From a virus (lineage: Duplodnaviria; Caudoviricetes): a stretch of 64,000 nt of DNA. This document shows positions 31,132 through 53,974 of the stretch, piece by piece (within the stretch, counting starts at the first letter, position 1; each line of letters starts with the position of its first letter). A program made the translations under genes and the position numbers. The notes below the pieces were generated by a model that ran no database searches, was not told the origin of the DNA, and saw nothing but the letters and a program-made list of their open reading frames with translations. The DNA lies in the IMG/VR virus record IMGVR_UViG_3300031993_000006, positions 1 through 64,000 of that record. One strand, 5' to 3'.

Positions 31132-31627
31132 GAGCCGAGTCCTCCTGCTTACCGACCTTTGCAGCATGTTCCTTCTTGGTGCCGCCGCGCTTCTTCTTTC
31201 CGCCATACATCTCGAGCAGCTTAGCCGGCTCGTAAATACGGATGTACTTCTCCTCAATCTTCTCGATATCGAGGAGCTTTCCGTACTTCATCGTAGCAAC
31301 CACATCGTTATGGCTGAGACCAGTCACCTTCATTATACGCTCAATCTGCTCAGTCTTCTCGCGGAGAGCCTCGGTCTTGGCACGGCACCACCGATTGTTC
31401 ATATGAACATGGTTCAGACCCTGCATAGTGATTGCCTGTATATCCTTCGGGAGATGGGAAAAGGTCAGCTCGTTCAGCTCATGGGCGACCCTACGCATAT
31501 TCGGGTCCATCGACACTGACTGCACCACATTGAACAGCTGAAAATTCCGCTTATCGTCATCGGTAACAGGAAGCCCCTGTGCACGGGCTCTCATAAAGGC
31601 AAACGGGTCGAACTTATACTCCGCCAT
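31124..31627 (-). CDS. Clamp loader small subunit (gp62-like)
   Basis: SVSMD...AHELN...Q...RWCRAK; downstream of gp44. Confidence 0.75.
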   Translation of the reverse strand: MAEYKFDPFAFMRARAQGLPVTDDDKRNFQLFNVVQSVSMDPNMRRVAHELNELTFSHLPKDIQAITMQGLNHVHMNNRWCRAKTEALREKTEQIERIMKVTGLSHNDVVATMKYGKLLDIEKIEEKYIRIYEPAKLLEMYGGKKKRGGTKKEHAAKVGKQEDSAHV

Positions 31628-32930
31628 TTGGATACCCTCCCGGGTATGTCGCCTGGGCATACTGTACATTGGCGGCCGGAGTAGCCTGGGCATTTACCGT
31701 CGGGGCAACCTGTGCGAACTGAGCCGCATTTGCCTGATACTGAACCGGCTGTTGCTGTGCCGGGGCAGGATTAGCCTGATGTGCCGCCTCCTGTTCCTCG
31801 ACGATATCATCAACGGTCAACGTATTGTTCTTTTCATACTGCATCTCAACCGGGTCAACCCCCATCTTCCCTACCATCTGGTACTGCCCGATTAGCATCA
31901 TGACATCGCAAAGGAATTCATACAGGGCGATTTCCTGGTTCACCTGAGTATTCGATGCACGATACGCCTTGCCAAGCATTGACCCAAATTGGATATACAT
32001 CCAGTCGATTTGCCCGGTGACCGGTAGAGGAATCCTGGAGAAGAAATACAATCCGAACGGGACATACACGCTCTTGCAGTCGTGGAATTCCTGCGAGATG
32101 AAATACCGGAGCCTTCTCGGGTCCATTGCGATTACATTCCGATAGAGCTTCGCGATTGATTCCTCGCGGATTACATTCGGGTGGCCGACAATGCTGCCAC
32201 CGTGTTCAAGGAAGGTAAGGTGCATCGCGTTGACCATCGCGCGGACATCCGGATAGCAAGCATTGATTGTTTCCACCAATGTTTCCTTGGACACCTGTCC
32301 ACCAGTAATTGCGGTTTCCTTCTTAGCAATTTTCTTTAAATGCTTGTATATACGATTCTTGTAACCCTTGTCGTCACCCGGATGGTCGAACGGGATTTCC
32401 TTACACCGTGAGCGAATTGCCGCCGGAAGACGACCAATATCATTACAGGTCAAGATAAAACGGAGATTACTGGATGTCGCCTCGATAAGAGACTGCAGCT
32501 TACGATAGAAGGAATCCGGATTGGACGGATTATCCGCCTCGTCAATTACGAAGTATTTAGGCAACCCGTTACCGGAACGATACATTCCGCCTTCGGAAAT
32601 TGCATCGATAATCTCGGAATCGCGCTGTGCATAGAGAACTTCTCGTTCGGCACCCATCAACAGCGGGAGCGCTTCGGCCAAGCTAGTCTTTCCAGTTCCC
32701 GGCACACCCGAATAGAAAATGTAGTTATTGTAGCCACCGAGCTGAAGCATACCGATAACCCAGTTCCGCATCTTATCCGGCAAGATTATTGCCCGGACAT
32801 CGGATTCATCAAGGGTAATCCCACGGTACTTTTCCACCCATGCCTTGGTAGGGTCATCATCGGCAACCGGACGCCCCGTAATAGTAGACTGCACGGGAAG
32901 GCCCGTAATAAAATCAATTTCGTCGTTCAT
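31614..32930 (-). CDS. Clamp loader ATPase subunit (gp44/RFC-like) with Gln/Ala-rich tail
   Basis: WVEKYR, GVPGTGKT, IDEAD, FILTCN, SRC. Confidence 0.93.
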   Translation of the reverse strand: MNDEIDFITGLPVQSTITGRPVADDDPTKAWVEKYRGITLDESDVRAIILPDKMRNWVIGMLQLGGYNNYIFYSGVPGTGKTSLAEALPLLMGAEREVLYAQRDSEIIDAISEGGMYRSGNGLPKYFVIDEADNPSNPDSFYRKLQSLIEATSSNLRFILTCNDIGRLPAAIRSRCKEIPFDHPGDDKGYKNRIYKHLKKIAKKETAITGGQVSKETLVETINACYPDVRAMVNAMHLTFLEHGGSIVGHPNVIREESIAKLYRNVIAMDPRRLRYFISQEFHDCKSVYVPFGLYFFSRIPLPVTGQIDWMYIQFGSMLGKAYRASNTQVNQEIALYEFLCDVMMLIGQYQMVGKMGVDPVEMQYEKNNTLTVDDIVEEQEAAHQANPAPAQQQPVQYQANAAQFAQVAPTVNAQATPAANVQYAQATYPGGYPNGGV

Positions 32931-32967
32931 AGCGCACTATCCATAGGTTGAAAGATATCTTTACCTA

Positions 32968-32985
32968 CAAATATAGCAATAAACT
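32968..32985. promoter_or_regulatory. Fused divergent promoter CAAATATAGCAATAAACT
   Basis: Identical to 1837-1854. Confidence 0.7.
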
Positions 32986-32992
32986 TCGTTTT

Positions 32993-33346
32993 ATGAAAAG
33001 CGTCATTCTCGAATTTATCACCGCATCGACCAATGAGCAGCCTGTCCTGCAAGAACAGGTCACCACCATATACAAAAAACTTTTCGAACAGGCCGCTACC
33101 GACATCAACAAGAAGCAGATAGCGGCGGACCCGGGCACCTGCTCACAAGGAATCGTGCAAAACGAAATCCTATCCAACGACAAGTCTGTGCCAGACGGAG
33201 TAGTGGGTGACCTAATGAATACATCGTACGCCAGCCGGTTCGGACAAGAGAAGAGCGTGGTGGAACCCGGGCGGTCTTCTACAGGTATTGGCGGTGGTCT
33301 CAATAACGAGAATGTCAATGCATCAGTATCCGGTTCCAATGCTTAA
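32993..33346 (+). CDS. Small late protein, paralogous N-terminus to 1875-2426
   Basis: MKSVILEF...PVLQEQV..IYKKLFE. Confidence 0.7.
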   Translation: MKSVILEFITASTNEQPVLQEQVTTIYKKLFEQAATDINKKQIAADPGTCSQGIVQNEILSNDKSVPDGVVGDLMNTSYASRFGQEKSVVEPGRSSTGIGGGLNNENVNASVSGSNA

Positions 33347-33354
33347 TTAACCGG

Positions 33355-34284
33355 CTAGGCCCCGAGCCAGTTGATATTTTCCGGATGGTATTCGATAACG
33401 AACTCGCCATTGGTATATTGCATTTCGAATTCCATTCCGACATCGAGCATTCCCCGTAAAGTCCGGGAAGAATCAATGTCGGAAATCACCTTGAATGTCA
33501 TCATGTAACCCCCGTGCTCGCCCGCCCGGAGATTCTTCATCATTCCAACTATGCGACCATCCATGAACTTGACAGGGTAAATGCCCTTGGAATACTTTTC
33601 AATAAATTCGGCATTAGCTTCAGGCTCTTCTCGCTGCCATGCCGGCCGAGGGTTGCTGAAAGGAATATCTATCCAGTCGCCATACAGGCTAAGCGAGCGG
33701 TTAATATTCCCGTAGCCGCACGGAACAATCCGATTACGAATACGGAAACAACTTTCATACTCATTATCGGCATCCTTCTTGACAACTTCTTGGTTTTCAG
33801 AATCGACATCATACCAAATTTTGGTGTTCAGATAATGCTTCATACGAGGCGAAAGATATACCGTACCTTCATTGCTCAACTCACCATCGTAAACAACAGT
33901 TTCGTATATACGGTCAGTAACCACAATAGCCTGTTCAAACAGTGCCGCGCCACCAATGAAGAAACACTCGGTTTCTTCGAAACGCTCGGCCATCGAAAGC
34001 GCTGCCCAGATAGAATTCGTGCAATAAACCGGGCAATCTCCGGTACCTATGGTTGCCAGTTGCAAATTATGCATATAAGCGTCATCCCGGGTAACCACGA
34101 TAAGTTTCCTACCAGGAAGCTTCCCCGGAAGCGACTCGTAGGTCTTCCTGCCCATTATAAGGGTATGCCCCATAGTAATCTTCTTGAACCTAGCAAGGTC
34201 CGCCTTGAGTTTCCACGGGAGCTTACTGTTGATTCCGATGTGGGAATCAGTGTAGGAACGGGCAAGAATCATCGACCTAATCAT
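33355..34284 (-). CDS. folA: Dihydrofolate reductase with C-terminal extension
   Basis: IG..KLPW...D...F, IMGRKTYESL, LPGR, FIGG. Confidence 0.9.
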   Translation of the reverse strand: MIRSMILARSYTDSHIGINSKLPWKLKADLARFKKITMGHTLIMGRKTYESLPGKLPGRKLIVVTRDDAYMHNLQLATIGTGDCPVYCTNSIWAALSMAERFEETECFFIGGAALFEQAIVVTDRIYETVVYDGELSNEGTVYLSPRMKHYLNTKIWYDVDSENQEVVKKDADNEYESCFRIRNRIVPCGYGNINRSLSLYGDWIDIPFSNPRPAWQREEPEANAEFIEKYSKGIYPVKFMDGRIVGMMKNLRAGEHGGYMMTFKVISDIDSSRTLRGMLDVGMEFEMQYTNGEFVIEYHPENINWLGA

Positions 34285-34352
34285 AGTCTTTCCTCAACAA
34301 AAAAGCAGCGGCCGTAATTAGCCACCGCTTCAAATATAGCAATTTCGGGATT

Positions 34353-35165
34353 CTATACCGCAATCGGCGCCTTGATGACCGGCCACGGGTCATAATCGAC
34401 CAAGGTAAAGTCGTCAAAGCTGAAATCGAATATGTCCTTAACATCAGGATTGATAGCCATCTTGGGCAACGGACGCGGTTCACGGGTAAGCTGAAGCTTC
34501 GCCTGCTCGAAATGGTTGGAATACAGATGGGTATCCCCGAGAGTATGGATGAACTCGCCCGGTTCATAACCGCAAACCTGAGCAAGCATCATCGTCAACA
34601 AGGAATAGGACACGATGTTGAACGGAACACCGAGGAAAGTATCGGCCGAGCGCTGATACAACTGGCAGCTAAGCTTGCGCTTCCCGGATTCGCCAACTCC
34701 CCCGACATAGAACTGGAAGAGGCAATGACAGGGAGGCAATGCCATATCCTTGATATCGGCCACATTCCAAGCGCAAACAAGATGTCTACGGGAATCCGGG
34801 TTATTCTTCAAGCCCTGCACGAGTTCGGAAATCTGGTCAATCGTGCGGCCATCCGGAGCATCCCAGCTTCTCCACTGCTTGCTGTAGATTGGACCGAGGT
34901 CGCCCTTTTCGTCTGCCCATTCATCCCAAATAGTAACACCGTTATCATTCAGGAACTTGATATTGGTGTCGCCCTTGAGGAACCAGAGCAATTCATAGAT
35001 GATACTGCGGAGGTGCAGCTTCTTGGTGGTCAAGCACGGGAATCCCTTGGACAAGTCAAACCGCATCTGGCGCCCGAACACGGACCGAGTACCGGTACCC
35101 GTGCGGTCGCTACGGTCGACCCCGTTTTCCAATATATCCTTAAGCAAATCAAGATATTGCTTCAT
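34353..35165 (-). CDS. thyA: Thymidylate synthase
   Basis: [35 protein letters not shown]. Confidence 0.98.
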
Positions 35166-35176
35166 AACAAATCTCC

Positions 35177-38110
35177 TTAGATAAATTCAAGCATTGCGTC
35201 AGTTTCGTCATACTCGAGGTCTTCCGGCCATCCGACAGCCTTGAACAGACGCCCGAGAATGTTGGACACTGACTTTTCCCACTGGTCGTTCCAGTCCACA
35301 TAGAACAGCTCGAACAGGCGCTCCGGGCATTCCTCGCCGGTGTAGCACATGATTGTCACATCATATTCATTCTCGGCAACCTTAATGAACTTCATCTTCT
35401 CGCCGGCGGCGATAGGTTCATAGGTACTCTGAGACAGAACCGGGTCAGTATCGATAAGGTAGTTCCAGACGGAAGCCGCACGGCGACGGAAGTCAAGCTT
35501 CGCGTATTCCTCACGCGGCAAACGGCACTGAAGAGGATACGGAATCGGCTCTTCCTTCATGCCGGACGGAATGGAAATATACGAATACTTGTGCTTATCG
35601 ACCGCCTCGAAAAATTCCTTCTTGATTTCAAGAACACGGGAGCGGACGACTTCCTTGTCCATCGTACGGAGCATCAGCTTGACGGTATCCATCATGCGCT
35701 CGCGGCTGAACATCGTGGTAGAGCTTCGGACAATTTCGAGACCCGTAACGGCGAAGTCCGGGGTAATCTCGAGGGTACCGGTCTTGATAATCTTACCGGT
35801 CTCGTCCTTCACAGGTTCCTTGTCGAGATACACGATGTCTTCGTTGGATTCCACTTCGCAGATGTACTTCTTCTTGGCAGTGACGATTGCCTTGTAGATG
35901 CACTTTTCACGCTTCAGGAAGAGTTCGTTCGTAAGGTATCCCCACCGGGTAGCATACGAAAGCATGAACTCGTCGAGCTTCTCCTCGAGAATCACGGCGT
36001 CCATAATGCGGCAGAAGTCGGTGATGCGGTAGCGGTTATAGATGATTCGGTAACCGTCACCCCACACAATTCCATCGTAGAACATAATCTTGACCTTGGT
36101 GAGGCCGCTCTTCTTGTCCACCGCGCGGTTTTCCGGGTCATGCCAGGTGGAATGCGCATACTTGTTGCACATACGGTTGAAGCACTTACGGGACTCGAGG
36201 TCCTCCTCGTCGGTCTTACCGAACGCATAGCGCTCGACCTGCTCGTGACCCTTGAACACGATGACCTCGGTACCGGTACCCTGCTTCTGGCGGAACTGTT
36301 CAAAGAGGTCGCCGACCTTGCAGTAGAACGAGTCGGTATCGCCGTGTGACATTCTCTTGTACAGAAGCTGCCCATCTTCATCCTCGGTAGTCCCGAGGAA
36401 TTCCGGGTTGATTGTCGGGCTGTAACCGAATGCGTTGATAAAGCGCGGGTCGGTGGCGACTTCCTCGTTGAGATACTTGGCAAGCTGCTCGATGGTGTAC
36501 TTGATGAGGTTTCTTCCGTAAGCCGTAATAGATGCGGCGTTGTCCACATCGTACAATGGGAAGAAGTTGGAACCGAGAAGACCGTATAGCGAGTTACCGA
36601 GGACCTTGTAGACCTTCTGCATCATATCGTAGATGGCAGTCATCTCGTGGTCGCCCGCCTTCTTGGCAGCCTTCATCTTGTTCTTGAGGCTTGCACGGCC
36701 ATCGAAGAGTAAACGGGTAACCTGCGGAACGATACCTTCCTTGTCCTTGCGGAAATACACCTTGTAACGGCCATTGTGGTCCCACGGGCTCTCGATGAGG
36801 TACTTCCTCTCCTCCTCGGTAAGCACATAGTCAATCGGCTTGGTGACCTTGACTTCCGGAGAAGTATTGAAGGTCATCATAATTGACGGATATAGCGAAC
36901 GGTAGTCGTAGGACACGAGCCAAGTGTAGAAGCCCGGGATTGAATAAACGAATGCACCTGGGTATTCTTCCTTGGACTGTTCGCGGAATGCCGGGAACAC
37001 AAGGTTATGCTGATGCAGGTGGTTCATCACGAACCCGACGAGCATCTTCTTGCTTTCAAAAACAAACGAGAACGGAACATGGGCTTCCGAAGCAGCGGTC
37101 ACACAGAGCTGGAACATCCGCTCGTGCATCTCGATGAGCTTCAAAAGGCGCACGTCCTGCCAGTTATACTTGATGAAGAGAGTCCAATCAGTGCGCCAGG
37201 TCTGGTAACCGTCCTTCAACGGCTCCTTGTGCTCACCGGTAACCTTGCCACCAATGTAGTCAAGCTTGTAGGACGGTTCTTCGGAGAATGTATACTTGCG
37301 ATAGAGGGCGAGGAAATCGATAACTTCCGTTCCGGCAATCATCAGGCAGTCTTCGCGTTCGTCCCACCACGCCTTCTTGAACTGGGCCGGGAGGCGGGAC
37401 ATAAGGTTGAGCGGGACGCCGAGCTTCTCCGCGCGGTTCACCATGTAGGTGGTATCGTACGAGAAGTTCCAACCGGAAAGAATGGCGACTTCATTACTAC
37501 CAATCTCGGTAAACAACCGGCGCAGGAGGTCCGCCTCGTCCGAGCAGAGAACATAGACAGCATTTTCCTTTGCCATCTCGTCCTTGAGGGACTGGTCGAT
37601 GTCCTGTCCGACACCGTATGTGATGTAATTGTCAGTCGCCGAAAAATAAATCGTTACACAGTTAATCGGGTATTCGGCACGGTGGGCTACGGGGAATCTT
37701 CCGGTAGTAGCCACCTCAATATCAAGGAAGCAGATATTGATTTTCTTCATGTCCGGCTTGAGCATCCCGGACTTCGCGTAGTGCTTCTGGAGGAACCTTG
37801 CACGGGGGTCGATGTCGATTTCGGCCAGGTGGTTCTGTGGGCCGCGCGCATCGTTGTATATCTTTCGTTCGGCTGTCGTATGCCGCTGGACGGCATACAT
37901 CTCTCGACCGTAGATATCCTTCATGCCACAAGGGACTGCGCCGAGTTCTCCCCGGTTCGGGGTATAGAATGTGTTGACGATGCGAGTCTGCTCCATCGTT
38001 CCGTCATCGTACCACAGGAACAGGTTGTCAGTATCCCTGTCGTGATAGATGGCCGACCACATTCGAGTCTCGGCGGTCTTGTCCGCCGGGCGTGTTATCG
38101 TAGCTTCCAT
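35177..38110 (-). CDS. Family B DNA polymerase (gp43-like)
   Basis: [14 protein letters not shown]...[23 protein letters not shown]. Confidence 0.97.
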
Positions 38111-38122
38111 AGGTTCTTATTG

Positions 38123-38133
38123 AAATATAGCAA
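38123..38133 (-). promoter_or_regulatory. TTGCTATATTT early/host-type promoter box (representative copy)
   Basis: Exact 11-mer at 1838, 18300, 23260, 32969, 34332, 38123, 47804, 49793 and 54003, each just upstream of a non-virion gene. Confidence 0.8.
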
Positions 38134-44584: not shown

Positions 44585-44587
44585 AGG

Positions 44588-46606
44588 TTAGACATCCTTT
44601 AATGAGCCAAGCGGCTTCTTGATAAAGTTAGCAATTCTTTCGACACCGAGGTTCATTTCCGGTGTCCTCGGGCGCACGACATACTCCAAACTCCCCCAAC
44701 TTTCGACCGATATCTGCATCATCGGTATACTGAACTTCAAGCAGAGCGCAGATACCGACGGACCGAGAAGCCCCCTCTGGTCGCCGAGCTGCTGGAAAAA
44801 GCTGATATACCCAAGTTCCCTAAGGTATTCCCCGCGAAGCGCGACAAACGGGCCGTCCATCACCTGCACCAGGTGCATACCGTCAATAGCCCTCGTACCG
44901 AAAACCCTGCGGTGCTCCCCGGTTATCTCGCTGTACAACCCGTAGAACCCGTAGGTATTCGGGCATCCTATCCAGCTGCCGTCAGCAAGACGGTACTCGT
45001 AGCCAAACGGGGCTACCGCGCCTACTTCGGCGGGAACTTCGTCGAGGCACTTGTGGAACATCGGGTCGGAAATGAACGAAGTCGACGACGCGAGAATTAC
45101 CCACTTCGGGGTAAACCGCACACTGAGGGACTTAAACTTGGCAATCGCGTTGTTAATGGCACGGGCGAACGAAGGCGGAATCTTGCGGCGGCCATAGACC
45201 TTCCCGCAGGTCATCCGGAATACACACTCGTCCTTCACATGCGGATATTCATCGTAGCGCCCATGCAGCCCGTCCGAGCTGAACAGGAAGGTGACAATCT
45301 GGCGCTCGTCGGAAAGGCGGAGAATATCGTTTCGGGTAGCCACGGTACGGCGGACCTCCGGACCGGAACTGAGAATGTTCCTGATTGCGTTGAGCTGTTC
45401 GTACTCACGGTTAACCTTGTCCAGCACCGCACGAGACTTCTTCTGCTTTTCGGCCTCCCGTTCCTGTATGGATGCGGCGATTGCGGCTTCCATCTGCTCG
45501 ACCGGATTAGCAAATATGACCGGCGGGGTAGCCAGCGCAGCCTTGCTGCACCCGGTACGGACATAGAGCTTCATCGGCTGCTTCTTGCGAATCTTGCACT
45601 CGACACCCTTGGCGACAACCTTCTCCACATCGGCCTTCACCCATCCCCTGATGACCATCCCGGGTTTCGCGGTAGGCGGCGCTATCGAGCCATCATTCAG
45701 GACGTACCGACACTTGCCACTGATGAACTCATCAATCCACCGTTCGGACTTCAAGAACTTATACTGTATTGCACGACGGGTATAGTAGGTATATCCCTCG
45801 CAATAGTACACCCTGTCATTGTGGGTGTCAATAAGGTCGTCAAGGAAGGCCCGGCTATATAGATAAGTGTGCGCATCCTTGGTTTCCGGTGTCGGCTTTA
45901 CCTCGTGGTACTCGCGCATCTTACGGAAGTAGCTGTTAGTCCATCCCATATAGATTGCGGCGATTTCCGCGGGAATCGATTCCGGAAGCGGAGTCTTCCT
46001 GAACCATCGACGCCCGCTACGGTCAGGATTCAAATAGGCAAGCATGGCAGCCTTGCTATACTTGTACGGCTGACGGCGCTCCCTCGGCTCGTGGTGTATC
46101 TTCCCTTCCTTGGTGAGAATCTTCAAGCGCTTTATCGAGATTCCCATAAGCATCGCGGCAACCGAGCGTCGGACTGGCGCAGTCATCTGCATTATGAGGT
46201 AGTACGGGTACCACTCGCGGTAGAACCGTTCGATATCCCGGCGGTAGACCACGGTCTTCCCGGTCTTCTCCGACTTGTGCGTACGGAGCTTCCCGCTCTT
46301 GACAAACCTAATGTACTGCCCGGGCTTAAACTTCAGTTCAAGCATCGCTTCAGCCTGAGTGAACTCGTGTCGGGGATGCAGGTTGTCCGGCGGCGTGATG
46401 CGATATTTTGCGACAGCATCCATAGCCGCAGTAAAGCGGAACATCTTCATCCCATTCTCGTTGTAACGGAAAGGAACATCGTCGAACATCCGGCTGCTCT
46501 TCAACTTGGATGTCGGGATGTTGAGGTACTTCGACAGGTACTGGAACCCGACGAACTCCGGAGTCACATTCCGGTTCTTGTAAGCCTGATGCAGAATAGC
46601 CGGCAT
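44588..46606 (-). CDS. Multi-HTH (MerR/excisionase-like) protein fused to a GT-A-like domain
   Basis: About five wHTH units (e.g. FTQAEAMLELK...VKSGKL, VAAMLMGIS...KEGKI). C-terminal SFARAINNAI...VGAVAPFG...VQVMDGPFVA. Confidence 0.65.
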   Translation of the reverse strand: MPAILHQAYKNRNVTPEFVGFQYLSKYLNIPTSKLKSSRMFDDVPFRYNENGMKMFRFTAAMDAVAKYRITPPDNLHPRHEFTQAEAMLELKFKPGQYIRFVKSGKLRTHKSEKTGKTVVYRRDIERFYREWYPYYLIMQMTAPVRRSVAAMLMGISIKRLKILTKEGKIHHEPRERRQPYKYSKAAMLAYLNPDRSGRRWFRKTPLPESIPAEIAAIYMGWTNSYFRKMREYHEVKPTPETKDAHTYLYSRAFLDDLIDTHNDRVYYCEGYTYYTRRAIQYKFLKSERWIDEFISGKCRYVLNDGSIAPPTAKPGMVIRGWVKADVEKVVAKGVECKIRKKQPMKLYVRTGCSKAALATPPVIFANPVEQMEAAIAASIQEREAEKQKKSRAVLDKVNREYEQLNAIRNILSSGPEVRRTVATRNDILRLSDERQIVTFLFSSDGLHGRYDEYPHVKDECVFRMTCGKVYGRRKIPPSFARAINNAIAKFKSLSVRFTPKWVILASSTSFISDPMFHKCLDEVPAEVGAVAPFGYEYRLADGSWIGCPNTYGFYGLYSEITGEHRRVFGTRAIDGMHLVQVMDGPFVALRGEYLRELGYISFFQQLGDQRGLLGPSVSALCLKFSIPMMQISVESWGSLEYVVRPRTPEMNLGVERIANFIKKPLGSLKDV

Positions 46607-47796
46607 TAGAACACTACCTCCGCCCGATTGCTTTCCTTCTTCTGACGGAACGCGCGGATTCCCTCGTAGCGCTTCTTTGAAGCTTCCTTGCGCATATTCC
46701 CGTATTTCAGAGCGAACAGGATAGAAGCCCCGTCCGGCGCCCTAGTCCTCGACTCAAGGACTTCCCGGCACACATACCCGTCACGGTCAAGCGGCATTTC
46801 TCCCATCATCACGGCCTTGTTGATATCCTTGCTCTGCAAACCTTCCCAGGTGAACCAGCGGAACCCCATGCGGCAAGTCGCTTCACGGGCTTCACGCCCC
46901 TTATCATCGTTATCCCAAAGAACCACGATGTTGTTCTTGTGTTCGGCAAGCCGCGGATTCTCGTTGATAATCTCGAGGAAGTGCGGAATGCCACCGATAG
47001 CGATTGAATTGCGTATAAAGGTAGAATCTATCGTACCCTCAAGGATATAGATAGTTTCGTCGTAGTTGATAAAGTCAATATTATACGCAGTGCGCTTGAC
47101 TCCGGCGAAGTTCAGGTAGCGCAACGGATTCTTCTCGTCGATTGCGCGGGCGTCGAACTGCCCCCACTTACCCCCGAACTGGTAAAACGGGATTATAATG
47201 CGGTTGCGGTACTCGTTCCCTCTCGGGTAGCCCTTCTCGTTCAGTACGAGATTCCCCATAGCGTCACGGTCGTAGAACTGCTCGCCCGCCTGGCATACGA
47301 ACCAGTCGTGATACACCTCCTCGCGGATTCTACGGTATTGGCAAAGCTGCAGACCGGCAATCGCCAAAGGATGATGCGCTGTTATCGGAATTATTTCCCC
47401 GGGCTTGAACGGGAGTACGGGCTGCGGAGGAGGTGGAGGGGGTGGAGGAAGCTTTGCTTCCCCATTATGCGTACCAACCTTGAAGCTCTTCTTTTCCGGG
47501 CCGAACGCATTGAACAGCAGCTGCCTATAGGCATCCTCGTCCCGCTCCTTCAGCCACATCGCATACGGCTTGATTGGCGTACACTTGTAACACACATACA
47601 TCCATGTATCGGTGTATATGTACGCCTTCTTCTCGTTAGGCCGTGTAGGGTCGCCACATTCAGGGTTCGGACAAACAAAGTTGAAGAATCTCGGATTAGA
47701 GTCATCAAGTGTATTTGCCGCCACCTGGTCTGCCAACTGCTCGTGAATAGAGTCGATGTACACGGCGGCCGGTATGTCGGAAAAATCATGCTGCAT
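46606..47796 (-). CDS. DNA primase (gp61-like)
   Basis: CPNPECGD...CYKC zinc domain, RIIIPF, EGTIDS, WDND, KDIN. Confidence 0.92.
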   Translation of the reverse strand: MQHDFSDIPAAVYIDSIHEQLADQVAANTLDDSNPRFFNFVCPNPECGDPTRPNEKKAYIYTDTWMYVCYKCTPIKPYAMWLKERDEDAYRQLLFNAFGPEKKSFKVGTHNGEAKLPPPPPPPPQPVLPFKPGEIIPITAHHPLAIAGLQLCQYRRIREEVYHDWFVCQAGEQFYDRDAMGNLVLNEKGYPRGNEYRNRIIIPFYQFGGKWGQFDARAIDEKNPLRYLNFAGVKRTAYNIDFINYDETIYILEGTIDSTFIRNSIAIGGIPHFLEIINENPRLAEHKNNIVVLWDNDDKGREAREATCRMGFRWFTWEGLQSKDINKAVMMGEMPLDRDGYVCREVLESRTRAPDGASILFALKYGNMRKEASKKRYEGIRAFRQKKESNRAEVVF

Positions 47797-47867
47797 GTAT
47801 TACAAATATAGCAAAGAAAAAGGAGCCGACTGACGCCGACCCCTTTCTATTGTTGCGTTGTACCTAT

Positions 47868-49691
47868 TTAGAATGGCAATGTGTCGTCACCGTCGGTTTC
47901 ATAGGTCGGAACTTGCTGCTGTGCAGTGGCGGCCTGTTGCTGGACCGGAGCGGACGGAGATACACCTTGGCTTGGGACCGTGAAAGCCGGCATTGCCGGT
48001 GCGGTTGCTGGAGCCGGAGCTGGCCTATAAGGTTCAGCGGGCTGAGCTGCCGGGGCGGCTGCCGTGGCTGCCGGGGCGCCCATCTGGACACCCTGCAGGG
48101 CAAACTGGGCTGCGGTCGGAGCCTTAAACTGCGTAGCCGCCGGAGCTGCTACCTGTACACCCGGCTGTGCAAACTGAGATGCCGCCTGAGCAGGTGCTAC
48201 AGAAGCCGGAGCGACAAATGTCGGTGCGGCTGGTGCAGCTGCCGGCTGACCAAACTGAGGTGCGGCGGCGACAGCCGGCTGAATATTGTCCGGCTGAGTC
48301 GGGTTCACCGGAGCCCGCATCACTGCAGGAGTCGGGGAATACGCGGTTGTTGCCGGGGTATTCGGGACCTGCCCAAAGGAAAGACCTGTCTGAACCTTAG
48401 TCGTAGGCGGGACCTTCGGGATATTGCCCTGCAGCACATAACCCTGAGCGCCTGTCTGGAACGGCTGAGCGGCGTATGTCGGGTTGTACGGGGAAGCTGC
48501 GCCCGGCATCTGCTGTGCGCCCAAGCCGAAGTTGCCTGCGGCAGCGCTCTGCTGCTTACTTGCAATGTCTGCGTTGACTTCCTGCCAGAACTTAGCCAAT
48601 GTTGCACGAGCCTGTTCCGGAGTCGGTGTATCTTCGTAAACGATAGTCAAGTCATGGCAACGCTGCAAAATGTCGTACATTTGATTTTCGTCAAATACGA
48701 CTTCCTGCATACCGGTCTGCGGATTGACAACAGTCTTTGTAGCAAGCATAGAGGAATAACCGGCAAAGCCACTACCCTGATAGGTCGGTGCACCCTTCTT
48801 GCCGGTACCCATACTCTTCTTTTCGTCCCAGACGCCAGCAATCTGATAGTTTCTTCCCTGAACAGGGTCATACGGAATGAAACAGTTACCCTTATCGAAG
48901 TACTGCTTTCCTTCCTTGATAGCTTCGGCCCTCTTGTTATATTCGGTAACCGGTTCCTGAAGCGTATTGTGCTGGAACTTATTCATTTCCCAGAGCTTCA
49001 CCTGGCCAGCAAGTTCATTATGGTTTTCATCGGAAATAATTAATGCATTTCCATACCATACATCTTCAGGCAACATCTGAAGATATTTCTTCAATGTATT
49101 ATCATCGGCGCCGGCTTCCTTAGCAGCATTGCGGCGATTCCATACATCCTGGCAGTACGGGCAGCTGAACTTGTCTACACCCGGAATTATCTTGCCATCC
49201 GGAGTCTTGGTCGGATTCTGGCAGCACTTTGCTATAAGAAGCTTACCGGTGACCAAATCACGAATATAGTGGAACTTTACGCATACATACGGATAGCTTG
49301 CGAAATTAGTGCCATTCGGAAGCGGTCGGACCGTAGCCGTATAAGTCTTGTTCTTTTTAGTAACGCGCGGACGATAGATTCGCGGGTCTGGCGGTGGTTC
49401 ACCGTTACCGGTATTTTCAGTCGGTTCCGGTTCAGCGGCCGGAGCTGTAATATAAAGCATACCGCCATTGGGTACCGCCGGATTACCCGGGGCAGCACCC
49501 GGAGCCATACCCTGGGACATGCCTTGCGGCATACCCTGAGCCATACCCTGAGCCATACCCGGGGTCATACCCGGCGCCATCATCTGGGCCGGTGCGGATG
49601 GGTCCTGACCCTGTGCATATTGGAATTGTGTCGGCCGAGCAGCCGCCGGATTGGGCATCACGTCCTGCATTTGTTGCATTGATTGTGTCAT
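47868..49691 (-). CDS. ssDNA-binding protein (gp32-like) with long disordered N- and C-termini
   Basis: ATVRPLP...H...C...CPYC...N.GQVKLW...YDPVQGRNY...PTYQGS.F; ends DGDDTLPF. Confidence 0.85.
   Translation of the reverse strand: MTQSMQQMQDVMPNPAAARPTQFQYAQGQDPSAPAQMMAPGMTPGMAQGMAQGMPQGMSQGMAPGAAPGNPAVPNGGMLYITAPAAEPEPTENTGNGEPPPDPRIYRPRVTKKNKTYTATVRPLPNGTNFASYPYVCVKFHYIRDLVTGKLLIAKCCQNPTKTPDGKIIPGVDKFSCPYCQDVWNRRNAAKEAGADDNTLKKYLQMLPEDVWYGNALIISDENHNELAGQVKLWEMNKFQHNTLQEPVTEYNKRAEAIKEGKQYFDKGNCFIPYDPVQGRNYQIAGVWDEKKSMGTGKKGAPTYQGSGFAGYSSMLATKTVVNPQTGMQEVVFDENQMYDILQRCHDLTIVYEDTPTPEQARATLAKFWQEVNADIASKQQSAAAGNFGLGAQQMPGAASPYNPTYAAQPFQTGAQGYVLQGNIPKVPPTTKVQTGLSFGQVPNTPATTAYSPTPAVMRAPVNPTQPDNIQPAVAAAPQFGQPAAAPAAPTFVAPASVAPAQAASQFAQPGVQVAAPAATQFKAPTAAQFALQGVQMGAPAATAAAPAAQPAEPYRPAPAPATAPAMPAFTVPSQGVSPSAPVQQQAATAQQQVPTYETDGDDTLPF
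49498..49585 (-). repeat. 12-bp tandem repeat encoding GM(A/T/P/S)(Q/P)
   Basis: MAPGMTPGMAQGMAQGMPQGMSQGMAPG. Confidence 0.9.
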
Positions 49692-49734
49692 AAATAGGTT
49701 CCTTCAACTTTTCCTAAGCAGCTCACAAAATTAA

Positions 49735-49773
49735 GGGCATCTCATGGCGTTGTTTCGATGCCATGAAATGCCC
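49735..49773 (-). promoter_or_regulatory. Stem-loop in the gp32 5' leader
   Basis: GGGCAUUUCAUGGC / GCCAUGAGAUGCCC, between the promoter box (49793-49803) and the ATG. Confidence 0.7.
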
Positions 49774-49827
49774 GATGAACCGCTACATATCAAAATATAG
49801 CAAATGTTTTGACACTTAGTGTCAAAA

Positions 49828-50517
49828 TTAAGATTTTTTATCCCCGGTTTCTATATTTTTTACGGCCGAGAGATTCGGAATCGCCAACTTAGGACCGGTA
49901 TCATGCCCGAGAAGTCGCATATGCTCATACTTTTCGAGAGAAGCTTCGACCAACTGGTCAACATCTTCAGGAACCTCATAATCGGGGTCATTCTTAAACG
50001 CCTCGTCAAGTTCCTTGACAGCTTCGTTGAGCAAGTCCTCGAACTTCCAGTCGATGCACTTGGCAACCGTATTGTCGATTGTACAAGCCTGGACAAACCG
50101 GCGGGACATCTCGTCATGGCTGAGAGCCTCTTCGGTGATATTCGGGTTGTACTCGTCGTCGATATGCTTGACGCCTTCGTGCTTTTCGTCATTGACGGTA
50201 AGAATCTTCCCGGCTTCCTTGTCATCCATATAGGACCCGGCATTGACTTCTTCGCTGTCACGCTCGAATTCCGGCGCGCGCATCATATAGTCCTTCCCGA
50301 GGAACTGGTTATGCCTTGATTCGCGCAAATCGGCAAGCCACTTCTTGCAGGTTTCGGTCTGCACAAGCTGGCCGTGGGACGACTTACTGAAGTCAGAGTT
50401 GACAATCAGCGCCGAAGTAGTCTCAATCTCCTTTTCACGGCTAGCAAACTTCTTTTCAAACGCCTCGTTTTCTTCCCTCAGCGTTTCAGCGTATTTCGGA
50501 AACTTAAAGTCCGACAT
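49828..50517 (-). CDS. Acidic hypothetical protein
   Basis: 229-aa ORF overlapping the upstream stop. Confidence 0.75.
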   Translation of the reverse strand: MSDFKFPKYAETLREENEAFEKKFASREKEIETTSALIVNSDFSKSSHGQLVQTETCKKWLADLRESRHNQFLGKDYMMRAPEFERDSEEVNAGSYMDDKEAGKILTVNDEKHEGVKHIDDEYNPNITEEALSHDEMSRRFVQACTIDNTVAKCIDWKFEDLLNEAVKELDEAFKNDPDYEVPEDVDQLVEASLEKYEHMRLLGHDTGPKLAIPNLSAVKNIETGDKKS

Positions 50518-51367
50518 TTTCTAAACCCCCATTCTTCATATCCTTTGCTGCCTCAAGAACAGTCTCAATCTTCTCGATATCGATGTCCATAGAGTCAATC
50601 TGTTCCTCGACAGATGTGCCGGCCGCCTCGTCCGGAATATCCTCGATAATTCGCTGGACGAACCCACCACCGAGACACATCGGGCATACTTCCCCTGCAT
50701 CGGTAGTACCGACGCCGTGGCAAATCGGGCATTCGATAATACTGTCGGCAACTTTCTGCTTGACCGTACCGGTACCCGCACATAGAGGACAGACTTCATT
50801 ACCGTGAACCTTTCCCATTCCGCAGCAAACCGGACATTCGACTTCGCCGGCCTTGCGACGCTTCTTCTTTTCCTCGTCCACCGGATGCTTGGCGACATAT
50901 TCAAGTTCATCGTCGCTTATCTTGATATTCAGTTCCTCGGCAATCTTCTGCTTTATCTCGATATCGAGAACCTGTGCAAACTTCTGAGGGTCAACCTCGT
51001 TCACCAAAGTCATCACGATATCGTGCATCCCAAATCCCGGAACCTTATATACATTCCCGTTTCGGTCAGTACGCTCGACAGTCCTCGCATATTTCTTGTA
51101 TGCATTCCACAAAGCCAGGTTAATCTTGTCCCTAGCCTTCTTGAGTACCGTATCCGGCATCTTGAAGGTAATGCAAATATCACCAGTAAACCGAGGTTTC
51201 ATCAAAAAGCGCTTAATTTCGCTGGCAATGTCCTCGTTGCCAAACTTCTTCTGCGCATCGGAGTCCGAGGCCTCCATGTCGTCACCACGGTTGATACCGT
51301 CAGTCTCCTGCGGTTCACCGGAAGCGGCGTCTTCATTTTCTTCATAGTCGCTATTGTAGCTCATCAT
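50504..51367 (-). CDS. gp33-like late transcription co-activator fused to four CxxCxGxG zinc-finger motifs
   Basis: DIVMTLVNEVDPQKFAQVLDIEIKQKIAEEL resembles the gp33 core; near gp32 as in T4. Confidence 0.5.
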   Translation of the reverse strand: MMSYNSDYEENEDAASGEPQETDGINRGDDMEASDSDAQKKFGNEDIASEIKRFLMKPRFTGDICITFKMPDTVLKKARDKINLALWNAYKKYARTVERTDRNGNVYKVPGFGMHDIVMTLVNEVDPQKFAQVLDIEIKQKIAEELNIKISDDELEYVAKHPVDEEKKKRRKAGEVECPVCCGMGKVHGNEVCPLCAGTGTVKQKVADSIIECPICHGVGTTDAGEVCPMCLGGGFVQRIIEDIPDEAAGTSVEEQIDSMDIDIEKIETVLEAAKDMKNGGLENVGL

Positions 51368-51397
51368 TCCACCCGATATTTCTATACGGTATGGAAA

Positions 51398-52168
51398 CTA
51401 TGGCTTTTTGGCTGCACTGCGCGGCTTGCGGACCGGCTTACGGCGCTCGGCAAGCTTTTCCAAGTCAACCGGCCAGTCACCCATCCTGACCATAGAGTAG
51501 TCCACCAGAGCCCGCCGGTCGAACTGCTTCTTTGGCGTATGGTAGGTAAGCATCGTCAGTATGTCCGGCGGGAGACTTTCCGGACCGAGTATGTCGTGCT
51601 TGATATGATTCCTGAGAATCTCGCACATCCAAAATGCATCGCAAAGGTCAGAATGAGGACTTTCGTACTGCTTCGGGAATTTATCGAATTCCGGATAGTA
51701 GAATTGCGGGTACAGTGCCCTCATCGCCTCACACATGGCCGGCTTCCCGGCATCGCCGTCACCGGTAGCAAAATGTTTAATCTGAGTAATTCCATAAGTA
51801 ATAATTCCCTTGCCCTGCAAATAGAAATGACGGCGATAAACACCGCAGAACTCCCCTATCTGGAAAATCGAATTACTGTTTCCCTCGTTAGCCTTTTCGT
51901 AGGCATAATCTTCAAAGGACACATACTGCACATCCTCCATGTCCCGCTCAAGAATCTTTATCGCCCGCTCCTGTCGAACAAGCATAGGAACCTTGACGTA
52001 ATCCGTACCGCTGCACATAATATGGACATGCTCGGTTTCGAGAATAGCGTTGATATGTGGCTGGAACCCGTAAAACTGGATGTCCTTGATATCAAAAGTC
52101 TCGTCGTCGAGGTCCATTATGACTTTTCCTGACGAGTTCATCGAAGGGTCAATACCGGCAATCTTCAT
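51398..52168 (-). CDS. RuvC-like Holliday junction resolvase
   Basis: IAGIDPS, FEDY, IKHFATG.G.A.K, DLCDA. Confidence 0.85.
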   Translation of the reverse strand: MKIAGIDPSMNSSGKVIMDLDDETFDIKDIQFYGFQPHINAILETEHVHIMCSGTDYVKVPMLVRQERAIKILERDMEDVQYVSFEDYAYEKANEGNSNSIFQIGEFCGVYRRHFYLQGKGIITYGITQIKHFATGDGDAGKPAMCEAMRALYPQFYYPEFDKFPKQYESPHSDLCDAFWMCEILRNHIKHDILGPESLPPDILTMLTYHTPKKQFDRRALVDYSMVRMGDWPVDLEKLAERRKPVRKPRSAAKKP

Positions 52169-52237
52169 TTGTACTCCTATGATAAAGAGGGTGGGAACCC
52201 CCACCCTCCTATCCTACCTACCATGCAACAAACTAAT

Positions 52238-53974
52238 CTATTTCGCCTCGGCTTCCTCTCCGGGTGCCACCAGCATATCAAACATTTCATCGCTAGGGCT
52301 AACCGATACCTTGGGCATTTCGAAACCAGCCGGTATGTTCTGCATTTCAGGAGCCTTGCTATTGGCCCGCTTCGGCCCGTTACCCTTTCCTGAACGCTGC
52401 GGAGCATTTATCTGCGGTTCGGCGTTAGCGACTGCAGTCTTGTAGGCATTAGACTGCTCGTCAGTCGGACTGTACCAAGTCATCGTCTTGAAGTCGCTGC
52501 AGGTAACAAACGAAACATTTGCCGGTCCGAGACGGGACTTCAGGATGCAGTTAAGGTACATACTGAGGCTTCTTGCGGTATCGTCGGTCGTAATGGACAT
52601 CAGGAAGTCCGCCGTTTCAGCATAACCGGAAGAACCTTCAATGGATTCGATACCGGCATCGGTATTGTGGTAACCGGTGCGGTTAAACTGCACAGCTGAA
52701 AGACAGGCGAAGTTACGGGCGATAGCAATATCCCTGAGCTGCTCGGCCTTCATAACGCCGTCGCTATACATACTGCTTTCGGTCATACGGCCACGGTATG
52801 ACGGCTTCATGATACCGATGTAGTCAATCACCAAAAGGTCAAGCTTGCCGTGCGCGATTTCGAACGAATCGATGATAGCCTCGATTTCCACCGGGGTTGT
52901 CGTCGTCTTCATATACTTGACCTGCAACTGGCCGTGACGGTTGCCGACATTAGCCATATCAGCGCAGCTCTTGTCAATCTTGGCACGGATTTCTTCACCG
53001 GTCATCGTGATGACCTTGTAGAACTCAGTCCCGGTAATATTGGCCGCGATTCGCTGCCATACATAATCTTCAGCAAGTTCAAGAGTAATATAAAGGACAT
53101 TGAAACCGCTCTTATATGCATAAGCGGCTTCACTACAAAGCGCCAACGACTTACCGATATTCGGCTGGCCGACAAGTAAAGATAAAGTCTTTCGATAGTA
53201 ACCGCCACCGCATATCGTGCCGTCCGGATTCGGGCGTCCGGTATAATATCGAACTTCGTTAAGACCTGAAGGTATGCACTGTTTCTGCTCACGGAGCTTC
53301 GCGAGTGCCACTTCAATATCACTATAAAAGTTCAACCCAAGGTCAGTATGGAGGCTAAAATTGACCGCGGCATGCAGTCTGGGTACAAGGTCGTGAATCC
53401 CATCAACATGCTTGTCGTGGATTGATTCTGCGACACTAATCAAAACTTCTTCAGCAAGCCGTTCACGGAAGAAATTTTCCATCATCAGGACGATGAAGTC
53501 CTGGTGCATCCCCGGGAGCTGCGTATTATAGATAAAAATCAGCTTATCGCGAGCCTGAAGAGCATACTCGTTCTGCCCCATGCCTGTTATAAGTTCCTGC
53601 GCAGTCGGAAGCCGGGAATGCTGGTTCTCATAACGGTTAATGATGTCGACAATATTACGGTTATTCCCGTCTTTAAACAAGGAAGGGCGCAATGCATCCC
53701 TTATCTTCGGCGCCAACGCCGAATCCTGAAAAAAGACGCGCAGTACCAAATCTTCCTGCGTAAGCGCCACCACCTGCTGTGTAGGCTGCAGATACCCCGG
53801 CTGTACGGGCATATTGCCCTGCACCGGCATACCGACACCACCATAGACAGGCATTCCCGCATGAGCTTGCTGCATCTCAGGGGCTGCACCCGCCGTTACG
53901 ACGGGCATCACCGGCTGGACCATCTGCTGCATAGTGGGTACCGCTACCGCAGGATTTTGCATAGTATATTCCAT
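52238..53974 (-). CDS. Replicative helicase (gp41/DnaB-like) with Gln/Pro/Met-rich N-terminus
   Basis: GQPNIGKS, YITLEL, VIDY, SAVQFNR, KSRLG. Confidence 0.93.
   Translation of the reverse strand: MEYTMQNPAVAVPTMQQMVQPVMPVVTAGAAPEMQQAHAGMPVYGGVGMPVQGNMPVQPGYLQPTQQVVALTQEDLVLRVFFQDSALAPKIRDALRPSLFKDGNNRNIVDIINRYENQHSRLPTAQELITGMGQNEYALQARDKLIFIYNTQLPGMHQDFIVLMMENFFRERLAEEVLISVAESIHDKHVDGIHDLVPRLHAAVNFSLHTDLGLNFYSDIEVALAKLREQKQCIPSGLNEVRYYTGRPNPDGTICGGGYYRKTLSLLVGQPNIGKSLALCSEAAYAYKSGFNVLYITLELAEDYVWQRIAANITGTEFYKVITMTGEEIRAKIDKSCADMANVGNRHGQLQVKYMKTTTTPVEIEAIIDSFEIAHGKLDLLVIDYIGIMKPSYRGRMTESSMYSDGVMKAEQLRDIAIARNFACLSAVQFNRTGYHNTDAGIESIEGSSGYAETADFLMSITTDDTARSLSMYLNCILKSRLGPANVSFVTCSDFKTMTWYSPTDEQSNAYKTAVANAEPQINAPQRSGKGNGPKRANSKAPEMQNIPAGFEMPKVSVSPSDEMFDMLVAPGEEAEAK

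Follow-up and report, generated by a model that had tools for sequence, protein, structure and literature searches.

[quoted passage not shown] In vitro, with PEG crowding, it forms liquid droplets (PMC11951158). E. coli SSB (EcSSB) carries a 56-residue disordered linker and a 9-residue acidic tip, ...DDDIPF. The linker is required for liquid-liquid phase separation and long-range cooperativity, via amide-amide contacts (bioRxiv 10.1101/2022.01.17.476650). Partners, the clamp-loader chi subunit among them, are recruited through the tip, not the linker, and the consensus of this bacterial C-terminus (SSB-Ct) is an acidic run and then (I/L)PF (PMC7145534). Among phages, SPO1 Gp27 forms transcription condensates (PMC13401047). 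The system described below resembles it in that disordered or modular proteins made by the phage have been proposed, or shown, to gather a molecular machine at high local concentration; in SPO1, however, the machine is that of transcription and the driver a single protein, whereas here uncharged P/Q/A tails centre on an SSB linker.

The window analysed is a 64,000-nt stretch of the 260-kb record of an uncultured T4-like jumbo phage from the rumen, whose relatives are metagenomic phages. Its SSB has the following features.

47868..49691, minus strand: gp32-fold ssDNA-binding protein, 607 aa (PF08804, PHROG 224, AF2 core match)
49401..49691, minus strand: N-terminal disordered region, aa 1–97, A/P/M/Q/G-rich, 7% charged (pLDDT <50, composition)
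49497..49580, minus strand: tandem repeat, 12 bp x 7, that codes for the PGMxQGM units in the N-terminal region (TRF period 12, 7 copies, 77% matches)
49437..49472, minus strand: conserved N-terminal motif PNGGMLYITAPA, aa 74–85 (invariant in alignment A1)
48519..49400, minus strand: folded core, aa 98–391, OB fold and zinc-site pattern (pLDDT mostly >90, gp32-core fold match)
47904..48518, minus strand: C-terminal disordered linker, aa 392–596 (pLDDT <50, composition)
48369..48425, minus strand: conserved mid-tail motif NIPKVPPTTKVQTGLSFGQ, aa 423–441 (kept in close relatives, alignment A1)
47871..47903, minus strand: acidic tip YETDGDDTLPF, aa 597–607, of the bacterial SSB-Ct type (conservation)

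The protein scores 33.4 bits against the Pfam gp32 family PF08804 (cut-off 26.8), and its AF2 core matches T4 gp32 (1GPC) and RB69 gp32 (2A1K) with TM 0.73–0.76 and E 2e-12. H141, C156, C177 and C180 are invariant across 32 relatives; a tblastn search of the whole SSB against the phage collection returned zero matches. Predicted pLDDT (AF2) is above 90 over most of the core and below 50 for residues 1–97 and about 392–604. Like T4 and RB69 gp32, the phage SSB thus has the gp32 core fold and zinc-ligand pattern, with a basic segment before the core and an acidic C-terminus. Compared with T4 gp32, it is extended by about 97 disordered residues at the N-terminus and 216 at the C-terminus, and these are the long disordered ends already recognised in the initial annotation; its tail is uncharged except at the tip, which has the bacterial LPF ending. 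With bacterial SSB it shares an uncharged, G/Q/P-type disordered linker and an acidic tip with (I/L)PF at its end. Unlike the tetrameric bacterial OB-fold protein, its core is of the gp32 fold (PF08804 was the only family found, and structural comparison matched gp32), its linker is about four times longer than that of EcSSB and A/P-rich instead of G-rich, and it has an additional disordered N-terminus. Extensions of like composition on the helicase and clamp loader are found in the phage and not in the E. coli system.

The C-terminal end of about 216 aa consists of the long linker and then the acidic ...DDTLPF tip. Its description as nearly uncharged is right for the linker (A 26%, P 17%, Q 14%, 4% charged, 6% F/Y) but passed over the acidic tip and the conserved mid-tail motif. 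The latter, assigned by eye from the listed tails, is recognisable family-wide as K(V/I)xT..A..(F/Y)(F/L/M)G, short-tailed outgroups included. L605, P606 and F607 do not vary among the 32 relatives, and 33 of 33 SSB family loci have an acidic run and then LPF at the C-terminal end. By analogy, such a tip offers a simpler recruitment mechanism, known already from bacteria. It might also mimic the host SSB, whereby a DDxLPF tip on a long linker would recruit or titrate host SSB-interacting proteins (repair, restart, recombination), the linker would follow that of the host SSB in length and composition, and the helicase and loader extensions would be unrelated. The tip does fit the bacterial SSB-Ct consensus, which is bacterial in general and may not be the host's, and it is kept family-wide, including in members without the other extensions. 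Mimicry is nevertheless improbable: the tip is older than the clade-specific expansions described below and therefore cannot explain them, and, since the acidic tail of T4 gp32 binds phage proteins, a phage-internal role for the tip is equally likely.

The term 'prion-like' in the initial annotation was too strong, since Ala and Pro make up 43% of the SSB tail and Gln only 14%, and the high proline content makes amyloid-like behaviour of the phage regions unlikely. The spaced F/Y residues, on the other hand, are borne out. In the tail of this phage only 0.9% of shuffles are as even, and 9 of 11 relatives place their aromatics more evenly than shuffles do. In having aromatics more evenly placed than by chance, and in being uncharged and disordered, these regions resemble the sticker-and-spacer domains of hnRNPA1 and FUS; they differ in being A/P/Q-rich instead of G/S/Q/N/Y-rich and in containing only about 6% aromatics, a content lower than that of classic phase-separating prion-like domains.

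The N-terminal region measures 99–106 aa in the closest relatives and 26–52 aa in the rest of the family. The GMxQ repeats reported earlier for the SSB are real, being encoded by the 12-bp x 7 tandem repeat, but they are confined to this region, and their copy number varies between close relatives (alignment A1; locus L012). PNGGMLYITAPA lies directly upstream of the basic DPRIYRPRVTKKNK segment, and distant relatives keep it in the recognisable form xxGGML/DFLxVxxP. With dN/dS of 0.18 for the N-terminal region and 0.15–0.27 for the SSB disordered regions, versus 0.10 for the core, the disordered ends are under purifying selection.

The other two extended proteins are the helicase and the clamp loader.

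52238..53974, minus strand: gp41/DnaB-like replicative helicase, 578 aa (PF03796, PHROG 19)
53762..53974, minus strand: helicase N-terminal disordered region, aa 1–71, V/Q/P/M/A/G-rich, 3% charged (pLDDT, homolog alignments)
52241..52411, minus strand: helicase C-terminal disordered tail, aa 522–578 (pLDDT <50, composition)
31614..32930, minus strand: gp44/RFC-like clamp-loader large subunit, 438 aa (PHROG 168, AAA PF00004)
31617..31781, minus strand: clamp-loader C-terminal uncharged tail, aa 384–438 (composition)

The helicase matches DnaB_C PF03796 at 34.5 bits (cut-off 27) and PHROG 19 at 4e-58. Its AF2 pLDDT is below 50 at residues 1–65 and 522–578. The ~70-aa N-terminus of like kind that had been proposed comes to 65–71 disordered residues (AF2, composition) and ends in a conserved junction, QPGYLQPTQQVVAL. 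The C-tail is 26% charged, and thus belongs to another sequence class than the N-terminal region. The reading frames of the disordered extensions are preserved among relatives whose helicase cores share as little as about 50% identity. All cultured-phage helicase matches align from query residue 67 onward only, and the PHROG and Pfam profiles stop before the tails, in agreement with the earlier statement that T4 homologs lack such extensions. The clamp loader matches PHROG 168 at 5e-36, over residues 29–346 of 438, and AAA PF00004 at 29.1 bits; Walker A GVPGTGKT and an SRC box are present in its translation. Its tail, previously put at ~50 aa, is 55 aa long (A 25%, Q 20%, P 13%, 9% F/Y) and 0% charged, with D/E/K/R absent. 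About 25 acidic residues lie between the core and this tail.

The 268 ORFs called greedily from the whole 260-kb record were scanned by composition for uncharged Q/P/A/G/M-type segments of at least 40 aa. Such segments occur in 7 of 268, three of these being the SSB, helicase and clamp loader. The replisome is enriched in them, with a Fisher p of 0.002 when 12 ORFs are taken to belong to it and of 0.02 when 25 are. In composition the three extensions form a single class: all are uncharged and rich in A/P/Q, with M/G/V besides, and pairwise Jensen-Shannon distances are 0.09–0.19 bits. The nearest look-alike of the SSB PGMxQGM repeats is a G/M/N/P segment on a head-morphogenesis-module protein; such sequence is therefore not exclusive to the replisome. 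Virion proteins carry further A/P/Q-rich segments.

To obtain the joint distribution, genes were paired by contig. One clade, which a quick helicase tree recovers as monophyletic (SH-aLRT 91), joins a helicase N-extension (49–81 aa vs 6–11 aa in outgroups), a doubled, charge-depleted SSB tail (145–259 aa with 1–4% charge vs 51–114 aa with 9–26%) and a Q/P loader tail (8–60 aa vs 0–3 aa; 8–26 aa in the clade except in relatives of at least 82% identity, where it is about 60 aa), while outgroups are without all three. An independent lineage (G001) has a 63-aa Q-rich loader tail and a ~225-aa uncharged tail on a 525-aa SSB ending DEDIDLPF but, having no helicase extension, is a partial repeat only. 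The joint gain counts as a single evolutionary event with one partial repeat. Among clade members, helicase extensions are longer where the SSB has more disordered sequence in total (Spearman 0.84, p 0.005, n=9 with near-identical genomes collapsed). The initial annotation had staked its proposal on conserved composition, and both composition and length of the extensions are indeed kept across the diversified clade while sequence turns over. It had also called the disordered regions 'matching', which applies to their compositional class and phylogenetic distribution, but not to motifs or residues: no common short motif was found among the extensions beyond composition expectation (best k-mer sharing p 0.025–0.04, uncorrected), and helicase and SSB regions showed no positive co-variation of residue composition across lineages (Q rho −0.70, aromatics rho −0.67).

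These data bear on whether the extensions arose by non-adaptive low-complexity growth, that is, by slippage at tolerant termini, with composition reflecting a lineage-wide mutational or compositional habit. The DNA tandem repeat of variable copy number beneath the GMxQ block, the fast turnover with abundant indels and the similar segments on virion-module proteins would all suit such an origin. Yet dN/dS is far under 1, reading frames are retained across diverged helicase cores, low charge is maintained over the whole SSB tail in every clade member, aromatic spacing is non-random and such regions are over-represented in the replisome, all of which make this origin highly improbable.

We favour, with a probability of roughly 0.4, a hub centred on the SSB linker, with the helicase and loader extensions as like-composed tags gained jointly in the clade ancestor; the three extensions would fit a self-associating replication hub with the DNA-coating protein at its centre. 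The SSB linker would have about doubled in the ancestor of one rumen/gut T4-like jumbo clade and lost its charges there, at the same time as an uncharged P/Q/A/M extension arose at the helicase N-terminus and a Q/P tail on the clamp loader. First, the SSB tip and internal motif would recruit partners, as the EcSSB tip does. Second, where SSB coats ssDNA, its long linkers with their amide and aromatic side chains would hold SSB molecules to one another through weak, multivalent contacts, by the forces that in E. coli produce long-range cooperativity and phase separation. Third, the helicase and loader extensions would act as low-affinity tags, enriching both enzymes in a fork zone rich in SSB linkers. 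All physical interactions in this scheme, and any droplet formation, we infer from sequence.

The same regions could instead be independent flexible tethers bearing short linear motifs, with the SSB a classical hub via its tip and mid-tail motif and neither association of disordered regions nor a condensate. The helicase N-extension would then present the junction QPGYLQPxQQVxAL to the loader, primase or SSB, and the loader tail would be a spacer. Conserved motifs do lie within the fast-evolving regions, namely the tip, the mid-tail motif and the N-terminal PNGGML..TAPA in the SSB, and the junction together with the clade-C LPPPFQP/PPAWDP motifs in the helicase. EcSSB partners bind the tip only, whatever the linker length (PMC7145534). 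A Pfam gp59-type helicase loader was not detectable, in a search whose controls were uninformative, and direct SSB-helicase contact would therefore be useful to the phage; the missing shared motif and fine compositional co-variation also favour tethers. They leave unexplained, however, why the SSB linker lost charge and doubled at the very node where two other proteins gained uncharged extensions, why helicase and SSB lengths co-vary, and why aromatics are evenly spaced over about 200 residues. We therefore consider tethers somewhat unlikely.

For the hub centred on the SSB linker, the shortness of the loader tail in most of the clade (8–26 aa) is a point against. In addition, gp32 is a monomer, whereas EcSSB is a tetramer, and the built-in valence of the phage SSB would therefore be below that of EcSSB. 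A condensate or phage factory, as originally proposed, is plausible from the sequence features; co-partitioning of the three proteins, and a resulting 'alternative to the phage nucleus', we purely infer might follow. No tubulin/PhuZ-type gene is detectable in the phage.

The bacterial-SSB-type tip, the acidic loader spacer and the charged helicase C-tail had been overlooked in the initial annotation. One further ORF adjoins the clamp loader.

31124..31627, minus strand: probable small clamp-loader subunit (gp62 position)

It is so assigned by position alone, and starts 14 nt before the clamp-loader stop.

The record in which the window lies is a single virus record of 259,974 bp (50% GC), the window being its first 64 kb. 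No close cultured relatives were found, neither megablast with a 23-kb region nor tblastn with the full-length SSB giving a match in the phage collection, and the DNA polymerase and helicase share only ~25–29% identity with those of T4-like cyanophages, rhizobiophages and similar phages. The interval under study is the core replication module, which is encoded almost entirely on the minus strand and contains:

31614-32930, minus: clamp loader (gp44-like)
listed between the clamp loader and the polymerase: DHFR and thymidylate synthase
35177-38110, minus: family-B DNA polymerase
46606-47796, minus: primase
47868-49691, minus: gp32-like SSB
listed between the SSB and the helicase: RuvC-like nuclease
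52238-53974, minus: gp41/DnaB-like helicase
54071-55438: UvsX

The helicase matches PF03796 (DnaB_C; 34.5 against a cut-off of 27) and PHROG 19 (4e-58) and has the Walker A sequence GQPNIGKS; the clamp loader matches PHROG 168 (5e-36) and PF00004 (29.1 against 21.2) and has both the Walker A sequence GVPGTGKT and the SRC arginine-finger box.

The initial annotation had described disordered, nearly uncharged extensions on the SSB, helicase and clamp loader, and the translations agree with it. In the AlphaFold2 models, pLDDT falls below 50 for SSB residues 1–97 and ~392–604 and for helicase residues 1–65 and 522–578. The last 55 residues of the clamp loader, whose PHROG profile stops at residue 346, contain zero charged residues and are 25% Ala, 20% Gln and 13% Pro. 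A crude proteome scan for windows of at least 40 residues with charge of at most 5% and at least 75% Q/P/A/G/M/N/S/T/V flagged seven of 268 ORFs, three of which are these proteins (Fisher p 0.002–0.02 for replisome enrichment, depending on the number of ORFs counted as replication genes). No such segments were present in the polymerase, primase, UvsX, RuvC, DHFR or thymidylate synthase of the same phage.

The SSB itself is built on a gp32 core. It scores 33.4 bits against PF08804, the T4 gp32 family (cut-off 26.8, residues 119–286), and 1.3e-7 against PHROG 224. In the AlphaFold2 model, built on a 32-sequence alignment, residues ~100–385 mostly exceed a pLDDT of 90, and this core matches 1GPC, 2A1K and 8GME with E values of 2e-12 to 5e-9 and TM (target) of 0.60–0.76, the next hit having an E value of 0.05; the TM for T4 gp32 (1GPC) and RB69 gp32 (2A1K) is 0.73–0.76. 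His141, Cys156, Cys177 and Cys180 are invariant across the 32 relatives as a His-Cys3 zinc site, and the pattern, as distinct from a residue-level superposition, suggests that they are equivalent to the zinc ligands of T4 gp32.

A disordered linker followed by an acidic tip is a well-known design of bacterial SSBs, and T4 gp32 and T7 gp2.5 are known to have acidic tails for interaction. In the initial annotation, the C-terminal region had been read as a long low-complexity tail. Such a tail is indeed present; overlooked, however, were an acidic tip and a conserved motif midway along it. The protein ends in ...YETDGDDTLPF; such an acidic run with LPF after it is the hallmark of the C-terminal tip of bacterial SSBs, and Leu605, Pro606 and Phe607 are invariant in the 32-sequence alignment. 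The mid-tail motif, NIPKVPPTTKVQTGLSFGQ, can still be recognised, degenerated to K(V/I)xT...A..(F/Y)(F/L/M)G, in relatives that are distant and short-tailed. The N-terminal disordered region holds another conserved island, PNGGMLYITAPA, which is followed at once by the basic DPRIYRPRVTKKNK segment leading into the core. When 1.84 billion representative proteins were scanned in full by HMMER with the SSB core, only 44 relatives emerged; among those that are complete, nearly all end in a low-complexity tail of ~60–250 residues that closes with (D/E)n-(L)PF. Two database relatives, P0014 (the SSB N-terminal half joined to a helicase C-terminus) and P0011 (unrelated sequence after about residue 330), are chimeric, probably through errors of assembly or gene calling on short contigs, and were left out of the tail statistics. 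Membership of the bacterial SSB family was considered and rejected, as the Pfam scan gives only PF08804 and the best structural matches are gp32 cores. The window SSB shares with bacterial SSBs the disordered linker and then the acidic (I/L)PF tip; it differs from them in its core and is not a member of their family. The tip and the conserved islands therefore define a gp32 core with a bacterial-style linker plus tip and at least one extra linear motif in the tail.

To follow the extensions through related phages, IMG/VR and other assemblies were used as the source of helicase loci (±10 kb, SSB included) and of clamp-loader loci, which were then paired by contig. Genomes bearing the extensions, with helicase cores down to ~50% identical to that of the window, form one group in a quick maximum-likelihood helicase-core tree (SH-aLRT 91); outgroups have lower core identity. 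Within this clade, the helicase N-extension measures 49–81 residues, as opposed to 6–11 in the outgroups, where the protein starts at MAAVYDL-type sequences, and the SSB tail has 145–259 residues with 1–4% charge, as opposed to 51–114 residues with 9–26% charge. The clamp-loader tail is Q/P/V-rich and short in most of the clade (8–26 residues), reaches ~60 residues only in the closest relatives of the window phage (at least 82% identity) and is 0–3 residues long in the outgroups. All outgroups keep the acidic LPF tip. Mimicry of the host SSB by this tip would account for the tip itself but not for the clade-specific expansions, and as an explanation we regard it as decidedly unlikely.

Given the single group in the helicase tree, the simplest history is one ancestral episode giving all three changes. 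Two of the three recur in an independent lineage, represented by record G001: the clamp loader there has a 63-residue Q-rich tail and the SSB (525 residues) a ~225-residue uncharged Q/G/A/P/N tail with three APANDPLAxGGG-type repeats that ends in DEDIDLPF, and the helicase is without the N-extension (loci L107, at G001:C1:64000-82000, L089, L091, L092 and L103). The joint gain of three extensions is effectively one event plus one partial repeat. Helicase extension length follows total SSB disordered length within the clade (Spearman 0.84, p 0.005, n=9 with near-identical genomes collapsed).

The four regions, namely both SSB ends, the helicase N-terminus and the loader tail, lie within a mutual Jensen-Shannon distance of 0.09–0.19 bits and form one compositional class; most other low-complexity segments lie 0.2–0.8 away, although the separation is not sharp, the charged disordered N-terminal half of a baseplate-hub-like protein being only 0.11 from the SSB tail. 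For the term 'prion-like', used in the initial annotation, composition gives a mixed picture: charge is low throughout (0–7%), with Gln at just 14–20%, Asn low and Ala plus Pro at 33–43% in the SSB regions. For the SSB tail (43% Ala plus Pro, 14% Gln) the term seems an overstatement. What the SSB tail does have is the sticker-spacer arrangement, its aromatics being spread evenly along an uncharged, flexible spacer. The gaps between aromatics have a coefficient of variation of 0.41–0.67, against 0.85–0.89 in composition-preserving shuffles, and nine of 11 clade tails are more evenly spaced than their shuffles (only 0.1–4.5% of which are as even); the 11 are related sequences, but come from three subclades with dissimilar tails. 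Even aromatic patterning is associated, in work on prion-like domains, with liquid-like rather than aggregating low-complexity domains.

Among relatives, the composition and very low charge of the extensions persist despite fast, indel-rich sequence turnover, bearing out the expectation that composition would be conserved. Against two relatives, the SSB has dN/dS values of 0.18 in its N-terminal region, 0.15–0.27 in its C-terminal linker and 0.10 in its core (the helicase pair is too close to inform), which points to constraint on the disordered regions that is weaker than on the core but clearly not neutral. The PGMxQGM block of the SSB is a 12-bp × 7 DNA tandem repeat (49497-49580) whose copy number varies among close relatives, so slippage supplies raw material. 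Neutral slippage as the origin of the extensions is, in contrast, highly improbable: the dN/dS values contradict it, as do the aromatic spacing and the exclusion of charge across stretches of hundreds of residues.

Several precedents bear on how such regions might act. In E. coli, the SSB tip alone binds partner proteins, including the clamp-loader chi subunit (PMC7145534), and the linker is needed for long-range ssDNA cooperativity and for phase separation, acting through amide-amide contacts that glutamate promotes (bioRxiv 10.1101/2022.01.17.476650). In the reading we find most likely by analogy, with a probability of roughly 0.4, the SSB tip and internal motif would recruit partners; the lengthened, de-charged linkers would give weak multivalent SSB-SSB association on SSB-coated ssDNA; and the like-composed extensions of helicase and loader would enrich both enzymes in the SSB-linker zone. 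What is shown here is confined to the sequence-level features; we infer every contact in this scheme.

K-mers shared among the regions are at or barely above the expectation from composition (shuffles; best p 0.025–0.04, uncorrected), and AQFAQ, common to SSB and loader, was discarded as a shared motif because composition predicts it (p 0.12). Across lineages, residue fractions of the helicase and SSB regions show no positive co-variation, several residues being negatively correlated. In the main rival explanation, the regions would be tethers independent of one another, each presenting a motif of its own (for example QPGYLQPxQQVxAL at the helicase junction), with no association between disordered regions; we consider it possible, if somewhat unlikely.

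Beyond the preferred reading of recruitment, SSB association and enzyme enrichment, the clade's replisome might be a phase-separated, membrane-less and shell-less factory on a long-linker gp32-fold SSB, with helicase and loader addressed by disordered 'zip-code' extensions, that evolved independently of the chimallin nucleus. This we think unlikely. The replication module is T4-like, to be compared with the nucleus-forming jumbo phages (Chimalliviridae), which have PhuZ and a chimallin shell; a search of the 260-kb record (91% complete) for PhuZ/tubulin gave no PF00091 match, and control genomes matched. On phase separation in phages, the literature we found is limited to a condensate for transcription in phage SPO1 (PMC13401047) and liquid droplets of T4 gp32/UvsX in vitro under crowding (PMC11951158).

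No description was found in the literature of an LPF tip and ~200-residue linker on a gp32 core with matching uncharged helicase and loader extensions in one clade. The clade amounts to a natural experiment, with sister lineages that either carry or lack the three extensions, another lineage that has two of them, and repeat-number variants, through which the question of whether phages use disordered tails to organise replication becomes testable by natural comparison. As the domains are short and defined, deleting or swapping them could show whether enzymes are directed by the tails to an SSB-based hub. The presence of the bacterial design, a disordered linker with an acidic LPF tip, on an unrelated gp32 core also bears on SSB hub evolution, and is relevant to engineering gp32-based amplification reagents.

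Look-alikes occur outside the replisome. The nearest to the Gly-Met repeats of the SSB is the N-terminus of a 314-aa ORF (G000:C1:130897-131841, plus strand, on the contig of the window phage; L068:1898-2842), which is G/M/N/P-rich with PGMNPGMNPGM repeats. Its 55-residue C-tail, in which Gln makes up 62% and Tyr residues are spaced out, is the one stretch of the genome that is truly prion-like (Q/Y-rich). The 314-aa ORF, for which Pfam, PHROG and Atlas gave no match, comes immediately after the prohead protease and a 301-aa ORF, with a large ORF downstream. We rejected it as a fourth replisome member, there being no family match and its position after the prohead protease indicating the head module; from gene position, a place in the head or scaffold module is probable. 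Only one clade-B record (L108) contains a homolog, which is 207 aa long and M/Q/P-rich at its N-terminus. Met makes up an unusually high 13–14% of the SSB N-terminal region (49401-49691) and the helicase N-extension (53762-53974), both minus, and 11% of this head-module protein's N-terminus. A 627-aa protein (18489-20372, minus) has a weak T4_baseplate/baseplate-hub match over the last 220 residues, a part that contains two CxxC pairs, and, before it, ~380 disordered residues that are P/A/Q-rich but charged (21%).

Some further features of the replication module were noted. The motif TTGCTATATTT (for the clamp loader, TATATTTG) precedes four start codons by 20–35 nt, those of the helicase (53974), DNA polymerase (38110), primase (47796) and clamp loader (32930), all minus, and is absent within 45 nt upstream of the SSB and uvsX, which suggests a candidate promoter class common to part of the replisome. 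For a gp59-type helicase loader, the Pfam models gave no match, with uninformative controls. DHFR (33355-34284, minus; 309 aa) has a domain that ends near residue 183, followed by ~125 apparently folded residues without a family match, and the primase (46606-47796, minus) has a nine-proline run (PPPPPPPPPQP) as the linker from its zinc-finger region to its catalytic region. On the 3' side of the clamp loader, the minus-strand ORF in 31124-31693 probably starts at an internal ATG at 31627 (MAEYKFDPF...), 14 nt before the clamp-loader stop. The plus-strand ORF 30962-31519 was dismissed as spurious, the real gene being minus-strand 31124-31627, and proteome counts are not materially affected. Translational coupling and position suggest that the latter encodes a gp62-like small subunit.
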